Shown: positions 1,250 to 4,623 of the stretch, one piece after another
Position numbering within the stretch: the stretch's first letter is position 1
How the letters are laid out: each line of letters begins with the position of its first letter
From: a virus
Taxonomy: Duplodnaviria > Heunggongvirae > Uroviricota > Caudoviricetes
Reading direction: 5' to 3' (one strand)
DNA: 8,638 bases
Virus record (IMG/VR): IMGVR_UViG_2675903606_000008
Location: 1 to 8,638 of that record
Program-made: the position numbers and the translations under genes
Notes under the pieces: generated by a model
Database searches by the model: none
The model's input: only the letters and a program-made list of their open reading frames with translations
Told to the model about the DNA's origin: nothing

Positions 1250-1438
1250 TTATCCAGCCGGTGTTTCGTTATTCAGGTACAGCGATACTTTTTTTACCGG
1301 GAGGCATTCACCAGAAATTTTTTGCTCGTCTCTTGCCTGGAGGCAGGATTCTTTACTGGCATAAATTCCGGTAATCACATTCTGTGATTCACCCGTTATA
1401 AGAAAAACCGTCATCATCAGTGCAAATGCTGAAGTCAT
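1250..1438 (-). CDS. ydfD: YdfD-family small lysis protein (62 aa, N-terminal hydrophobic segment)
   Basis: Track ORF 1250..1438 minus, MTSAFALMMTVFLITGESQNV...EQKISGECLPVKKV...ETPAG. It matches my memory of E. coli YdfD in length, hydrophobic N-terminus and the EQKI.G.C.PV.KV motif. Its ATG overlaps the dicB stop in an ATGA arrangement (1435..1438). Confidence 0.75.
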   Translation of the reverse strand: MTSAFALMMTVFLITGESQNVITGIYASKESCLQARDEQKISGECLPVKKVSLYLNNETPAG

Positions 1439-1623
1439 TGACGTTCTCCGAAAATACCAAGTTCAAGAAGAGCAATTCGGGAAAGTATGGAATTATCATT
1501 GAGCAGATAAGGCTCATATTTCCTCATGTTAATGGCATCTTCAGTAAACTCCCGGTTACTGAGCAGAACACCAATATCAAAACAACCTTCAGACGTATTA
1601 ACGTTTGGTAATAACGTTTCCAT
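1435..1623 (-). CDS. dicB: DicB cell-division inhibitor (62 aa)
   Basis: Internal Met of track ORF 1435..1728 gives METLLPNVNTSEGCFDIGVLLSNREFTEDAINMRKYEPYLLNDNSILSRIALLELGIFGERQ. The N-terminal 30 residues are near-identical to DicB as I recall it (MKTLLPNVNTSEGCFEIGV...FTEDAIN.RK). A GAGGA Shine-Dalgarno lies 7 nt upstream of the ATG at 1621..1623. Confidence 0.85.
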   Translation of the reverse strand: METLLPNVNTSEGCFDIGVLLSNREFTEDAINMRKYEPYLLNDNSILSRIALLELGIFGERQ

Positions 1624-1792: not shown

Positions 1793-1835
1793 AAAAAGGG
1801 CGGCAGAGCAGCCACGGAGTAAAACTGATACCGCC
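1793..1835 (-). terminator. Intrinsic terminator-like hairpin forming the DicF 3' end (GGCGG...CCGCC stem plus U-tract)
   Basis: On the minus strand GGCGG (plus 1831..1835) can pair with CCGCC (plus 1799..1803), with additional internal pairing and a following TTTTT (plus 1793..1797). dicB downstream must be expressed by readthrough or processing. Confidence 0.5.
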
Positions 1836-1850
1836 AAACGTCACCAGAAA
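1798..1850 (-). ncRNA. dicF: DicF small regulatory RNA (53 nt; known antisense regulator of ftsZ and other mRNAs)
   Basis: The reverse complement of 1798..1850 is TTTCTGGTGACGTTTGGCGGTATCAGTTTTACTCCGTGGCTGCTCTGCCGCCC, essentially identical to the E. coli DicF sequence as I remember it, followed by a T5 tract. It lies in the expected position between the upstream genes and dicB. Confidence 0.85.
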
Positions 1851-2397: not shown

Positions 2398-3048
2398 TTA
2401 CCAGTCAATCCAGAGTGGACCGTGTTCAGCGTAAATATAACTGTACACATCCAGATTATATTTGTGGTCTGTTAAGAACAGGCTGCAAATACATGCCGAA
2501 GCTTCCAGTGCAGCGGCTCTGTTACTGAATAACCATGTAGCAACATTCCAGCGTTTTTCTGCATCCCAGTCTTTCTCAAGGCCTGATACCATGAAGAAAC
2601 CGTTAGTGTTGCCATCAAATAATTCTGTTTCCAAATTTTTAAGCAATGCCTGATGGACTCTTGCCAGGTATTCCGCCGGAATTTCGCCACGAATTCTGAT
2701 GAGATTGTCATAAACAAACATGTTCCCCGCATATGGCGATTTTTCTTTCTTGTTTTTTAAACCAGCATCATGAGCAAACTGATCAATTTCTTCTTCCGTT
2801 GGTTTCGTATTGATGTTTTGCGCTGTCGTTTCTGCAATTTTATTTGCCACACTCTCTGAGTCGTGTTTATTTATAGACGCACAGAAATACAATCCGGTAA
2901 ACGCATCGCGCACATTACGAGCCATATTATCAGTGTCTTTTTTCGTTACCGATTCCAATTCAAGTTCGTTCAGACGATGACGAAGTGTGTGTGCTGCAAT
3001 CTCCTGGATTGAAGGAGGTAAATCTTTAAATTCCATCGTCAACCTCAT
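2398..3048 (-). CDS. Hypothetical protein (216 aa), accessory gene in the dicB operon at the position of ydfB/ydfC
   Basis: Track ORF 2398..3048 minus. Its ATG overlaps the ydfA stop as ATGA (3046..3050), which suggests translational coupling. An alternative start is M5 (MEFKDLPPSIQ, plus-strand CAT 3034..3036). It is more AT-rich than the flanking prophage genes. I recognise no family or catalytic motif. Confidence 0.7.
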   Translation of the reverse strand: MRLTMEFKDLPPSIQEIAAHTLRHRLNELELESVTKKDTDNMARNVRDAFTGLYFCASINKHDSESVANKIAETTAQNINTKPTEEEIDQFAHDAGLKNKKEKSPYAGNMFVYDNLIRIRGEIPAEYLARVHQALLKNLETELFDGNTNGFFMVSGLEKDWDAEKRWNVATWLFSNRAAALEASACICSLFLTDHKYNLDVYSYIYAEHGPLWIDW

Positions 3049-3200
3049 CAGTCAGTGTTTCTGGCTAACCAGCGACGCGCGCCAGCTTCAGTTTTAAACG
3101 TTTTGCTTCTGGTATACGTCATCGCGGTAAACGTGCCGTCCTGATTGGGAAACACGCCACATACCAGAGATTCGTTGTTGCCAAGATCGATAGTATCCAT
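3048..3200 (-). CDS. ydfA: YdfA-family small protein (50 aa), first gene of the dicB operon
   Basis: Internal start of track ORF 3048..3278 gives MDTIDLGNNESLVCGVFPNQDGTFTAMTYTRSKTFKTEAGARRWLARNTD, which closely matches E. coli YdfA as I recall it. GAGG lies 6 nt upstream of the ATG at 3198..3200. Confidence 0.8.
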   Translation of the reverse strand: MDTIDLGNNESLVCGVFPNQDGTFTAMTYTRSKTFKTEAGARRWLARNTD

Positions 3201-3277
3201 GCTGACCTCATTTCCCCTTAACGCCGGGGTAGCGGAACTGTTTGCTGAGAACACCGTGCGGTGTCTTGATGCAAGCA

Positions 3278-3332
3278 AGATTAGCCATGACTAACAATTT
3301 GGTCAAGTATTTTTGTTTGCCATGACTAACAT
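3278..3332 (-). promoter_or_regulatory. Putative dicB-operon promoter (minus strand -35 TTGACC, 17-nt spacer, -10 TAATCT) flanked by two DicA-operator-like 20-mers
   Basis: On the minus strand: -35 TTGACC (plus 3301..3306), 17-nt spacer, -10 TAATCT (plus 3278..3283). Operator-like 20-mers at 3278..3297 (overlapping spacer and -10) and 3313..3332 resemble the palindrome in the dicA-dicC intergenic region. Confidence 0.55.
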
Positions 3333-3366
3333 TTTGGGCAACCAAAAAGATAACGCATTGATTGCG

Positions 3367-3774
3367 TTATCTTTTGTTTGTTCGTTGACGGGCTTTTAAT
3401 AACTCTTCAAAGAGTTTGTTGAAATTTTTTACTCGGGCGCGCATCTCGGTGAGCTGAGCATCCTGTTCTGATTCAGGCAATGCATTAAAAAGCTCAAGGA
3501 GCTCATGTTCTTTGGGGGATAGAGCAACTGGCTCCTCAATAGGTGGTGATGGTTGCTTGTCTTCATCGCCAAATAGAATCCATGTTGGCGAGCACTGCAG
3601 TACTTTGCTGAGGGCAAAAAGATTCTTTCCTGTAGGTTCGCTATCATCCCGCTCCCATTGTGAAACCGATACGTGAGAAATTTTCAGGACTTTAGCAAGA
3701 GACCTTTGGGTGTATTTGAGGTTTTTTCGGCGATATCTAATGCGTTCGCCAATGGTTAAATTTTTTGTATCCAT
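3367..3774 (-). CDS. dicA: DicA, CI-like HTH (XRE-family) repressor of the dicB operon (135 aa)
   Basis: Track ORF 3367..3774 minus, MDTKNLTIGERIRYRRKNLKYTQRSLAKVLKISHVSVSQWERDDSEPTGKNLFALSKVLQCSPTWILFGDEDKQ...NFNKLFEELLKARQRTNKR. This is near-identical over its full length to E. coli DicA as I recall it. It is divergently arranged with dicC. Confidence 0.9.
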   Translation of the reverse strand: MDTKNLTIGERIRYRRKNLKYTQRSLAKVLKISHVSVSQWERDDSEPTGKNLFALSKVLQCSPTWILFGDEDKQPSPPIEEPVALSPKEHELLELFNALPESEQDAQLTEMRARVKNFNKLFEELLKARQRTNKR

Positions 3775-3796
3775 AGTTAGCTAATGCTAAATCTTA

Positions 3797-3843
3797 TTGA
3801 CTATGTTTTTGTTAACATCTATTTTGTTAGTCATGGCTAACAA
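3797..3843 (+). promoter_or_regulatory. Putative dicC promoter (-35 TTGACT, 17-nt spacer, -10 TATTTT) with overlapping palindromic operator
   Basis: TTGACT at 3797..3802, 17-nt spacer, TATTTT at 3820..3825. The 20-bp operator TTGTTAGTCATGGCTAACAA (3824..3843) has perfect 7-bp inverted arms and starts within the -10 hexamer. The dicA promoter should lie in the same 83-bp intergenic region but I could not place it convincingly. Confidence 0.55.
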
Positions 3844-3857
3844 TCAAGGTGCTTTAA

Positions 3858-4088
3858 ATGCTTAAAACTGACGCACTTTTGTATTTCGGTTCAAAAACAA
3901 AACTTGCACAAGCTGCTGGTATTCGTTTGGCTTCGCTTTATAGCTGGAAAGGGGAGCTAGTACCTGAAGGTCGCGCGATGCGCCTGCAAGAGGCATCCGG
4001 CGGGGAACTTCAGTACGACCCCAAAGTTTATGACGAATATCGTAAGGCAAAGCGGGCGGGGCGGTTGAACAATGAAAATCACCCCTGA
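3858..4088 (+). CDS. dicC: DicC, Cro-like small regulator (76 aa)
   Basis: Track ORF 3858..4088 plus, MLKTDALLYFGSKTKLAQAAGIRLASLYSWKGELVPEGRAMRLQEASGGELQYDPKVYDEYRKAKRAGRLNNENHP. This is near-identical to E. coli DicC as I recall it and is divergent from dicA. Confidence 0.9.
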   Translation: MLKTDALLYFGSKTKLAQAAGIRLASLYSWKGELVPEGRAMRLQEASGGELQYDPKVYDEYRKAKRAGRLNNENHP

Positions 4089-4623
4089 ACAGGTTTGTGA
4101 GGCTCTGGATGCCTGGGTGTGCCGACCAGGAATGACACAGGAACAGGCGACGATATTAATCACGGAAGCATTCTGGGCTCTGAAAGAACGCCCGAACATC
4201 GATGTTCAACGCATCACGTTTAATGATGGCGAGGTTGATCAACGGGCACTGGGCGTTAACCGGGTGAAGATATTCGAACGCTGGAAAGCTATCGACACCA
4301 GGGATAAGCGGAAAAAATTCACGGCGCTGATTCCGGCAATTATGGAGGCTATCCGAATTAGTGATTTCAGGTTGTATCGTGAGATCAGTGATGGAAAAAG
4401 CATTACGTACATGATCGCCGGATTAAACAAAGAATATGGCGATGTGGTGGAGTCCGGGCTGCTTTTTGCGGATCCATCTGTTGTGGAACGTGAGACTGAC
4501 GAGCTTATAGAAAAAGCTATTGCTTTCAAGCATGCGTATCGTCAGCAGTATCAATATTACTTTGCAGATAAACAAATATCTGCCAGGGGTTCGTATGAGT
4601 ATCGATGCACTACGATGGGCTAA
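4072..4623 (+). CDS. YdaT-family protein (CII-like regulator, formerly annotated as toxin YdaT), 183 aa
   Basis: Track ORF 4072..4623. Its N-terminal half (MKITPEQVCEALDAWVCRPG...KIFERWKAIDTRDKRKKFTALIPAIMEAI) resembles Rac-prophage YdaT (MKIKHEHIRMAMNAWAHPDG...KIFRWVEKD...LLPAIEKAM). It occupies the cII position between the Cro-like and replication genes. Start overlaps the dicC 3' end by 17 nt. Confidence 0.7.
   Translation: MKITPEQVCEALDAWVCRPGMTQEQATILITEAFWALKERPNIDVQRITFNDGEVDQRALGVNRVKIFERWKAIDTRDKRKKFTALIPAIMEAIRISDFRLYREISDGKSITYMIAGLNKEYGDVVESGLLFADPSVVERETDELIEKAIAFKHAYRQQYQYYFADKQISARGSYEYRCTTMG

Follow-up and report, generated by a model that had tools for sequence, protein, structure and literature searches.

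Probable DicA operators at the dicC and dicB promoters of a Qin-like lambdoid prophage

In phages lambda and P22, repressor and Cro use common operators. The original descriptions of the dicA-dicC-dicBp immunity region of Escherichia coli K-12 are reportedly those of Bejar (1986 and 1988) and Cam (1988). The switch of this cryptic prophage, Qin (Kim), has also been described more recently (Yun et al. 2012, PMC3441716; Ragunathan et al. 2023, PMC10448788). At the K-12 operator Oc, binding in vivo depends on DicA and is abolished by one A-to-C change, DicA no longer represses a heterologous promoter once a single base in one arm is changed, and 5'RACE has located the dicC start; two further K-12 sites, Oa and Om, are not bound by DicA alone (PMC3441716). 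The K-12 primer O-PR124 has the sequence CACTTGACCGATATGTTAGTCATGGCTAATCTTGTTTGCA, with dicBp defined there as TTGACC-17-TAATCT, and derepression of a 112-bp dicBp-lacZ fragment is 22-fold on deletion of dicA, 165-fold with Rem and absent on deletion of dicC (PMC10448788). For the CP-933P system of E. coli O157:H7, EMSA and DNase I footprints have been published (PMC8630535).

Prophage identity and regulatory genes

The window, by which we mean the whole 8,638-bp stretch of viral DNA analysed, is from a Qin-like lambdoid prophage of E. coli and carries the immunity region of that P22-like prophage type. It is 99.9% identical to strain TW08637, whose record is annotated in the order dicB, DUF1391, HTH, dicC, YdaT, and 88.9% identical to K-12 Qin. 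The gene order common to the window and K-12 Qin is dicB-DicF-...-ydfA-dicA / dicC-ydaT: from open reading frames, Pfam, Rfam and annotations, dicB and DicF lie downstream of ydfA, and dicA is divergent from dicC. The three operator positions, the hexamers of both promoters and the dicA terminator align with K-12 Qin without gaps. Unlike K-12 Qin, the window has an unannotated 216-amino-acid open reading frame in place of ydfB and ydfC, and its prophage keeps replication genes and a full ydaT, both lost in K-12. Judged by sequence, the switch is the orthologue of the K-12 Qin dicA/dicC/dicBp switch, a kind of system already known, and the window copy is ordinary in that the equivalent K-12 switch has been described.

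The repressor gene dicA (3367..3774, minus strand) encodes 135 amino acids, 93% identical to K-12 DicA; its N-terminal helix-turn-helix resembles that of P22 c2, and its C-terminal part is short and helical. The protein matches Pfam HTH_3 (6e-16), and its N-terminal domain matches the P22 c2 N-terminal-domain structures 1adr and 2r1j (2e-20). The Pfam search returned HTH-type families only and no S24 (LexA-like) autocleavage domain in DicA; in the literature, DicA has no Ala-Gly site and is not induced by mitomycin C, and Rem is its antirepressor (PMC10448788). DicA is lambdoid-repressor-like in action, yet it is not a canonical CI/c2-type protein. The initial annotation had remarked that dicA lacks an obvious Shine-Dalgarno sequence, and on inspection we saw no GGAG-like element ahead of its ATG at 3774.

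Divergent from dicA, dicC (3858..4088, plus strand; so named in TW08637) encodes a 76-amino-acid Cro-type regulator that matches Pfam P22_Cro (1.3e-11) and the P22 Cro structure 1rzs (3e-6) and shares all but 3 of its 76 residues with K-12 DicC. On the other side, a terminator hairpin with a 13-bp stem and T-runs on each side (3345..3375) overlaps the dicA stop codon; the minus-strand RNA folds at -16.7 kcal/mol (z = -4.9) and is followed by UUUUUGGUU. The first operon gene read from dicBp is ydfA (3048..3200, minus strand; Pfam DUF1391, 1.4e-29), the leader of which, taken whole, has no unusual structure (RNA fold z = -0.02). The small RNA gene DicF (1798..1849, minus strand; Rfam RF00039, 75 bits, E 1.4e-15) also lies in the operon, as does dicB (1435..1623, minus strand), recognised by its translation and by the annotation of the 99.9% identical record. 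This cell-division inhibitor is the toxic cargo held silent by the operators.

Palindromes and promoters around dicA

The palindrome TTGTTAGTCATGGCTAACAA at 3824-3843 (Oc, OR1-like) has perfect 7-bp arms (TTGTTAG/CTAACAA) and is self-complementary at 9 of 10 positions overall. Its relatives lie at 3278-3297 (OL1, three mismatches) and 3313-3332 (OL2, two mismatches), 35 bp apart from centre to centre; set against Oc, OL1 is complementary at 17/17 positions and OL2 at 18/19. Allowing up to three mismatches, a search of the 8,638 bp returned these three places only, against a mean of 0.00 in 200 dinucleotide-preserving shuffles. The initial annotation had described three copies of a 20-bp palindrome, one with perfect 7-bp arms and two about 35 bp apart, and its positions and sequences proved correct, with no copy expected by chance. 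The refined consensus is TGTTAG-YY-AT-RR-CTAACA. Its TTAG-N6-CTAA core occurs three times in the window (0.07 expected), at OL1, at Oc and at 3777-3790, the last being a fourth match overlooked in the initial annotation.

On the right, the dicC promoter (3797..3825, plus strand; PR-like) consists of TTGACT, a 17-nt spacer and TATTTT, with a predicted start near 3832-3833, and is the sole consensus-grade promoter-scan match in 2900-4200. Its -11 A is in register with the K-12 equivalent. Oc shares the last 2 nt of the -10 and extends from about -8 to +12, so that the palindrome begins inside the -10, where the initial annotation had placed it. In an ungapped alignment the site coincides with K-12 Oc, and the arms are identical; the centre is TCATGG in the window and TTATGA in K-12. 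Two weaker candidates lie towards dicA. A candidate weak operator, 'Oa' (3775..3794, OR3-like), has the core TTAGCTAATGCTAA at 3777-3790 adjoining the dicA start codon, and this core is invariant in type-A loci. A candidate half-site, 'Om' (3799..3818, OR2-like), lies over the dicC -35 and reads ATGTTAACAAAAACATAGTC on the minus strand; it has a single consensus-like arm, and its centre is 25 bp from that of Oc and likewise from that of Oa. A search for the dicA promoter found weak candidates only (TAAGAT at 3796-3791 and TAGCAT at 3789-3784, neither having a good -35 element), in agreement with published statements that the K-12 dicA promoter is not recognisable.

On the left, dicBp (3278..3306, minus strand; PL-like) consists of TTGACC (3306-3301), a 17-nt spacer and TAATCT (3283-3278), which appear on the plus strand as GGTCAA at 3301-3306 and AGATTA at 3278-3283; the start would lie near 3270-3271. 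OL1 (3278..3297; TTGTTAGTCATGGCTAATCT on the minus strand) extends over spacer and -10 (about -27 to -8), and its three mismatches all fall in the outer arm, the part that also serves as the -10 hexamer. OL2 (3313..3332; ATGTTAGTCATGGCAAACAA on the minus strand) lies upstream of the -35, about -62 to -43, and has one good and one degenerate arm. Alignment shows OL1 to be conserved in K-12; in OL2, the centre is TCATGG in the window and CTATAG in K-12, and the degenerate arm is CAAACAA and CATACAA, respectively. Two copies thus stand on either side of the -35 of a minus-strand promoter, as first annotated, and its hexamers are identical to those of K-12 dicBp. The promoter matches consensus at 8/12 positions and was not among the promoter-scan matches, so its assignment rests on identity with K-12 dicBp and on conservation rather than on consensus strength; CTTGACC is invariant among 44 distinct downstream variants.

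The K-12 dicBp-lacZ fragment is equivalent to about 3255-3366 of the window and carries both left sites. In the accessible literature we found no biochemical DicA footprint on these two sites, a literature search for DicA ChIP-seq returned nothing besides a DicC preprint, and in Reg-Seq the DicA site at dicB is of low evidence and unknown location. The host regulator YjdC has also been reported at the dic locus.

Immunity types and alternative readings

Loci that share the ydfA leader and the ydaT flanks but have other DicA and DicC N-terminal domains carry a palindrome of their own at the same three positions (CCTTAG-N6-CTAAGG in type B, TTGAG-N4-CTCAA in type C). Across 11 repressor specificities, the palindrome at the three positions switches with the DNA-binding domains of repressor and Cro; because both N-terminal domains always change together, this covariation does not assign a given site to DicA, to DicC or to both. 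When the scores of the two best 18-mers were added, with the Oc region as anchor, the match between own OR and own OL among the 11 types was 27.9, compared with 24.1 +/- 1.8 for cross pairs, and none of 100,000 permutations reached the own-pair value. An earlier score from single best 16-mers was dropped for its weak diagonal. The OL1-OL2 spacing is 35-36 bp in all immunity types in which both sites could be placed by eye.

Given the orthology of Oc, the identity with the K-12 dicB promoter and the covariation with the repressor, it is highly probable that the three 20-mers are operators through which DicA controls the dicC promoter and dicBp, which is the function the initial annotation had proposed. 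For OL1 and OL2, we infer direct contact by DicA. The same sites are very probably also operators of the Cro-type DicC, shared with DicA, since the strongest DicC ChIP-seq peaks in K-12 lie on both sides of dicA and have a palindromic TT(A/C/T)G...C(G/A/T)AA motif with the same TTAG...CTAA core (PMC11430063).

In the mechanism that we propose, a DicA dimer would use its P22-c2-like helix-turn-helix to bind each palindrome. At Oc it would lie across the strong dicC promoter from about -8 to +12 and block RNA polymerase; at OL1 it would cover the spacer and -10 of dicBp; and at OL2, just upstream of the -35, it would probably stabilise occupancy of OL1 by cooperativity, as each OL site has one good arm only. 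Both this cooperativity and steric occlusion as the mode of repression are what we infer. Jointly, the sites would silence ydfA, DicF, dicB and the remaining operon, and the hairpin after dicA would stop read-through from dicA into the operon, insulating dicBp. DicC, the Cro homologue, is expected to recognise the same core, so that inactivation of DicA by the Rem antirepressor, heat or urea would let DicC shut off dicA, giving a bistable switch.

The 20-mers might instead be primarily DicC (Cro) operators, with DicA acting elsewhere or at Oc only and the dicBp sites serving DicC control of the early-left operon. The DicC peaks that flank dicA and their shared core motif (PMC11430063) fit such an arrangement, the N-terminal half of DicC co-varies with the palindromes as that of DicA does, and direct evidence for DicA binding in K-12 is limited to Oc (PMC3441716). 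We nevertheless consider it unlikely: the arms that DicA requires at Oc recur exactly in OL1 and OL2, the minimal dicBp fragment rises 22-fold without dicA but is unchanged without dicC (PMC10448788), and the sharing of operators by repressor and Cro in lambda and P22 makes shared use simpler than exclusive use.

Two further readings concern the nature of the repeats themselves. The dicBp copies could have no function and be left over from a local tandem duplication of 35 bp, with repression exerted from a distance by looping from Oc, by H-NS or by YjdC. The repeat does exceed the operator (an identity of 88% over 26 nt between 3281-3306 and 3316-3341, with a second -35-like TTGCCC), and effects of H-NS/Cnu and of YjdC on the locus have been reported. 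This reading is very improbable, however, in that K-12 is without the extended duplication yet keeps both operator copies, the arms are invariant and the spacers next to them vary most, immunity types found in several genera each retain a pair of their own sites flanking the -35 at a distance of 35-36 bp, and the 112-bp K-12 fragment, out of its locus and without Oc, is still repressed by DicA (PMC10448788). Near-perfect 20-bp palindromes could in principle also extrude or fold, acting as DNA cruciforms or RNA hairpins on transcription or mRNA stability rather than as protein sites. We give this hardly any credence: dicC transcripts are predicted to start within Oc (~3832) and ydfA transcripts downstream of OL1 (~3270), so that neither would contain a whole palindrome, the single-base arm change in K-12 Oc destroys DicA-dependent repression of a heterologous promoter (PMC3441716), and it is the sequence, beyond its symmetry, that is kept within each type and switches with the repressor.

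Within the probable DicA operators of type A, the arms and the central AT are invariant among 32 distinct upstream and 44 distinct downstream variants. Positions 8, 9, 12 and 13, in contrast, vary far above synonymous sites, by transitions only, at a rate at least 10 times that of synonymous sites in the adjacent dicA, and the arms never change. A pattern census of viral contigs for type-A Oc variants gave 55 stretches, mostly already sampled, and added little. We suggest tentatively, and with some doubt, that these four positions of every DicA operator form a fast-evolving tuning element. Recurrent selection retuning repressor affinity is plausible, given the scarcity of DicA (~20 per cell), its titration by additional operator copies and the differing numbers of Qin-type prophages among E. 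coli genomes; alternatively, this palindrome or repressor-bound DNA may be a mutational hot spot. For P22, work by Koudelka and by Williams reportedly shows that affinity is modulated by central bases which the protein does not contact. If confirmed, the hypervariable centres would offer a natural system for affinity tuning by non-contacted bases and would reveal the way in which a scarce repressor is divided among co-resident prophages. General hypervariability of operator centres was rejected, as the centres of types B (66 loci) and C (75 loci) are quiet; there, variation falls in the spacers immediately flanking the operators. Dcm/VSP and Dam sites were likewise rejected as the cause of the transitions, YYATRR containing on inspection neither CCWGG nor GATC.

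Comparison with known switches

As a system, the locus is a re-identification of a textbook-style prophage switch and offers little new biology. The new element here is the natural immunity-swap test, and the 11 heteroimmune operator/repressor pairs are possible orthogonal parts, or a data set for the specificity code of P22-c2-type HTH domains. The analysis also resolves the DicA/DicC sites of the dicB promoter to single bases, where regulatory databases give the location as unknown or of low evidence, and the refined consensus is of modest practical value. Of the three-operator OR/OL layout, the right side has one strong site, one core match (Oa) and one half-site (Om), and the left side has two sites 35 bp apart and no third.

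The initial annotation had likened the locus to a P22-type immunity region, and the c2-like HTH, the divergent Cro homologue and the presence of the same operator at PR/PRM and PL bear this out. P22 immC (c2, Cro, OR1-3, OL1-3) has a homologous repressor HTH and Cro, divergent repressor and cro genes, and palindromic operators that overlap PR and PL, as in the window. The P22 operators are 18 bp long (7+4+7, ATTTAAG-type arms), whereas those of the window are 20 bp (7+6+7, TTGTTAG arms); the left promoter has two clear sites 35 bp apart, where P22 has three closely packed; and DicA, at 135 amino acids, is without the S24 peptidase/RecA-cleavage domain and is controlled by the antirepressor Rem.

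With lambda CI/Cro, the locus shares bistable-switch logic, an operator placed on the PR -10, operators at PL and a repressor gene without a Shine-Dalgarno sequence, and DicA is reported to stimulate its own promoter. It differs from lambda in having no operator sequence homology, in its spacing (24 bp in lambda) and in that DicA undergoes no SOS cleavage. PaaR2/YdaS/YdaT of CP-933P occupies the same slot, with repressor, cro-like ydaS and ydaT and with dicB downstream, and repeats palindromes of its own type at PR/PRM and at a PL-like promoter; but its repressor is of another family, its cargo is a toxin-antitoxin, and its palindromes are 18 bp long with GTTTAGTAA half-sites, four of them equally spaced on the right (PMC8630535).

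Operator copies at the dicC and dicB-operon promoters

The 20-mer at 3824-3843 (Oc), TTGTTAGTCATGGCTAACAA, has perfectly complementary arms, TTGTTAG and CTAACAA, and is self-complementary at 9/10 positions overall. Searching all 8638 bases at up to three mismatches, we found it in three places only: Oc itself and, both in minus-strand reading, 3313-3332 (OL2, two mismatches) and 3278-3297 (OL1, three mismatches), the latter pair lying 35 bp apart centre to centre. None of 200 dinucleotide-preserving shuffles contained a match (mean 0.00). Sequence and mismatch search therefore agree with the initial annotation, which had described a palindrome with perfect arms and two further copies.

The copies are non-random and overlap core elements of two promoters. 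A promoter scan of 2900-4200 gave a single consensus-grade promoter, that of the Cro-type gene dicC (TTGACT-17-TATTTT, 3797-3825, plus strand), and Oc, proposed to start within its -10, shares the last two bases of that element. On the minus strand, the dicB-operon promoter dicBp was read directly as TTGACC (GGTCAA at 3301-3306), a 17-base spacer and TAATCT (3283-3278); it matches 8/12 consensus positions and is absent from the promoter-scan list. As had been suggested, the two left copies bracket its -35, with GGTCAA between them, and TAATCT forms the outer arm of OL1. With a dicBp start at ~3270, OL1 would lie at about -27 to -8 and OL2 at about -62 to -43. The dicC start mapped by 5'RACE in K-12, with the -11 A in register (PMC3441716), carries over to ~3832-3833, so that Oc spans about -8 to +12. 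The left operators sit inside a 35-bp direct repeat that reaches past them (3281-3341; 26 nt, 88% identical) and includes a second -35-like sequence, TTGCCC, at 3341-3336 on the minus strand. Unlike the window, K-12 Qin lacks the extended part of this repeat, which suggests a local duplication in the window's lineage.

The operator core, TTAG-N6-CTAA, has a fourth match at 3777-3790 (site 3775-3794), which adjoins the dicA start codon and was absent from the initial annotation; this pattern occurs three times in the window, against 0.07 expected. A half-site covers the dicC promoter -35 at 3799-3818, and the three right-hand elements are spaced at 25 bp. From their positions, 3775-3794 and 3799-3818 are most probably the K-12 'Oa' and 'Om', neither of which was bound by DicA alone in vivo (PMC3441716). 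By analogy with lambda OR3, Oa is plausibly a preferred DicC site through which dicA would be shut off. Upstream of the dicA ATG at 3774 there is no Shine-Dalgarno-like sequence, as noted originally, and a search for a recognisable dicA promoter yielded weak -10 candidates only, in keeping with published statements (PMC7567609, PMC3441716).

Orthology with the K-12 Qin switch

This locus and the K-12 Qin switch are orthologous. Over 2900-4300, identity is 99.9% with a prophage of E. coli TW08637 and 88.9% with the K-12 Qin prophage; the TW08637 order is integrase, exonuclease, DUF1482, dicB, a hypothetical gene, DUF1391 (ydfA), an HTH protein, dicC, YdaT and replication O/P-like genes. Rfam places DicF at 1798-1849 (minus strand), and Pfam identifies HTH_3 in the 135-aa repressor, P22_Cro in the 76-aa DicC, DUF1391 in YdfA and YdaT_toxin in the next gene. 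The repressor is 93% identical to K-12 DicA, and its residues 1-70 match the P22 c2 N-terminal domain, whose structure was solved with operator DNA (E 2e-20), while DicC matches P22 Cro (E 3e-6).

All three sites align without gaps to K-12 counterparts; their orthologues there are an operator validated by genetics and a promoter fragment that DicA represses. K-12 Oc, 5'-TTGTTAGTCATAACTAACAA (Yun et al. 2012, PMC3441716), conferred DicA-dependent repression when assayed in vivo as an operator; one A-to-C change in an arm abolished that repression, and high-copy clones of the Oc region were viable only when Oc was mutated, since the operator titrates DicA (PMC3441716). On the left, primer O-PR124, CACTTGACCGATATGTTAGTCATGGCTAATCTTGTTTGCA (Ragunathan et al. 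2023, PMC10448788), defines the K-12 dicBp as the same TTGACC-17-TAATCT promoter, bearing out the earlier proposal that it drives the dicB operon. Both left copies fall within the out-of-locus K-12 dicBp-lacZ fragment, which is equivalent to window ~3255-3366; the fragment was derepressed 22-fold by dicA deletion, and an in-locus fusion rose 165-fold with Rem, an antirepressor acting on DicA (PMC10448788). The palindromic motif reported for DicC in a 2024 preprint, TT(A/C/T)G...C(G/A/T)AA (PMC11430063), is the TTAG...CTAA core of the window sites. On the opposing side, Reg-Seq rated a DicA site at dicB as low-evidence, location unknown (PMC7567609), and the literature accessible to our search contained no biochemical footprint at dicBp.

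Several neighbouring features were also observed. At 3345-3375, overlapping the stop codon of dicA, is a hairpin with a 13-bp stem and with A- and T-runs on either side; folded on the minus strand (-16.7 kcal/mol, z = -4.9) it is followed by a U-run, and it resembles a terminator that works in both directions between dicA and dicBp. A 216-aa ORF (2398-3048, minus strand) shares one base with the stop codon of ydfA. Pfam gives no match for this ORF, and the 99.9% identical record annotates it as hypothetical; K-12 Qin instead has ydfB and ydfC here. The ydaT-like ORF overlaps the end of dicC, beginning 17 bases ahead of its stop codon (4072-4088), so translational coupling is possible. An inverted repeat, ACACCG-TG-CGGTGT, lies at 3251-3264, which is about +7 to +20 in the transcript inferred for ydfA. 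Immunity types A (the window's DicA type), B and C all carry it unchanged, so the repeat is not an immunity operator; its 6-bp stem at the leader 5' end could be an mRNA-stabilising hairpin or another factor's site.

Covariation of operators with immunity type

Other E. coli prophages share the window's ydfA leader and ydaT side, but differ in the N-terminal domains of repressor and Cro-like protein, and these heteroimmune prophages carry their own palindrome at the three equivalent positions. In type B, CCTTAG-N6-CTAAGG lies at the cro -10 and TTAG/TAG...CTAA(G/A)-type copies lie either side of a conserved CTTGACC; in type C the palindrome is TTGAG-N4-CTCAA at each of the three positions. When the comparison was widened to relatives in Citrobacter, Rahnella, Symbiopectobacterium, Superficieibacter and other Escherichia species, every immunity type proved to have a motif of its own, present once at the right-hand site and in two copies downstream of the repressor gene; these two flank a TTGnCn -35 and are 35-36 bp apart. 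Across 11 types, the mean match score between the Oc region and its own downstream region was 27.9 versus 24.1 +/- 1.8 for cross pairs, and the observed sum was not attained in any of 100,000 permutations. The sites thus co-vary with the domains through which the immunity proteins bind DNA, and this comparison of sequences shows them behaving as immunity-specific operators would. Covariation cannot assign a site to DicA or to DicC, because repressor and Cro always swap together.

The left edge of the exchangeable module lies just downstream of the dicBp -10, at or adjoining the inferred start. What is swapped is the operators and the N-terminal DNA-binding parts of DicA and DicC; the C-terminal ~75 residues of DicA (LQCSPTWILFGDEDK...NFNKLFEELL) and ~45 of DicC (LVPEGRAMRLQEASGGEL...) are conserved across heteroimmune types, making the DicA tail a candidate common target of antirepressors such as Rem. 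Mosaic boundaries pass through both genes (window 3367-3600 and 3950-4088; loci L003-L006). Contigs with three of the E. coli-type dicA loci, L007 (DicA 93% identical to the window's) and L017 and L018 (both with the type C repressor), are assigned to metagenome-assembled genomes labelled Collinsella sp., Bacillota bacterium and Veillonella parvula; most likely they are enterobacterial prophage contigs that were mis-binned.

Operator centres and the probable working of the switch

Among 81 type A loci (DicA 93-100% identical; 32 distinct upstream and 44 distinct downstream sequences), the arms TGTTAG and CTAAC and the central AT show no or almost no variation in all three operators. Only four positions vary, 8 and 9 between pyrimidines and 12 and 13 between purines, which gives the consensus TGTTAG-YY-AT-RR-CTAACA. 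The promoter-side arm of OL1 is always CTAATCT, which is the -10, save for rare TAATAT variants, and one arm of OL2 is degenerate in every case; therefore only Oc has two full arms, which fits its titration of DicA.

The variable centres (Oc 3831-3832, 3835-3836; OL1 3285-3286, 3289-3290; OL2 3320-3321, 3324-3325) are hypervariable among otherwise near-identical prophages (L027-L106). On a minimum spanning tree of 53 distinct type A haplotypes (603 nt: 80 nt upstream, the dicA coding sequence and 115 nt downstream), the 12 centre positions underwent 6.5 changes per site (78 changes; transitions/transversions 78/0), as against 0.20 in the 408-nt dicA coding sequence (about 0.6 per third codon position; 59/22) and 0.90 at other intergenic positions (90/74). 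Seven of the 13 haplotype pairs separated by a single base differ at a centre site, and pairs with identical dicA coding sequence show 0.164 differences per centre site versus 0.005 per arm site.

Positions 8 and 9 show every one of the four pyrimidine combinations, which makes recurrent change likelier than reassortment. The hypervariability may come from selection that tunes affinity, from a mutational hot spot specific to the palindrome or dependent on the repressor, or from short-patch conversion. It is confined to the DicA type, the centres of types B and C being quiet. In those types (L107-L266) it is the few bases immediately flanking the operators that vary, with 4-7 changes per site versus ~0.3-0.4 at third codon positions; among them are the -35-to-OL1 spacer, the sequence upstream of OL2 and the cro-side of Oc (window equivalents 3298-3300 and 3844-3850), flanks that vary in type A as well.

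The K-12 Oc genetics, the DicA-repressed dicBp fragment and the covariation with DNA-binding domains uphold the original identification of the 20-mers as DicA operators, and the sites are very probably DicA/DicC operators working as a lambdoid-type switch. DicA dimers would occlude RNA polymerase at Oc and OL1, with OL2 helping OL1 cooperatively; DicC would use the same sites, and the terminator would shield dicBp from dicA transcription. The operator finding is correct and the kind of system is already known; only the comparative operator/repressor set and the central-base hypervariability go beyond the literature searched. The locus works like the immunity regions of P22 and lambda, with a repressor that is not a canonical CI/c2-class member, since it is without the S24 cleavage domain and is controlled by an antirepressor (PMC10448788).
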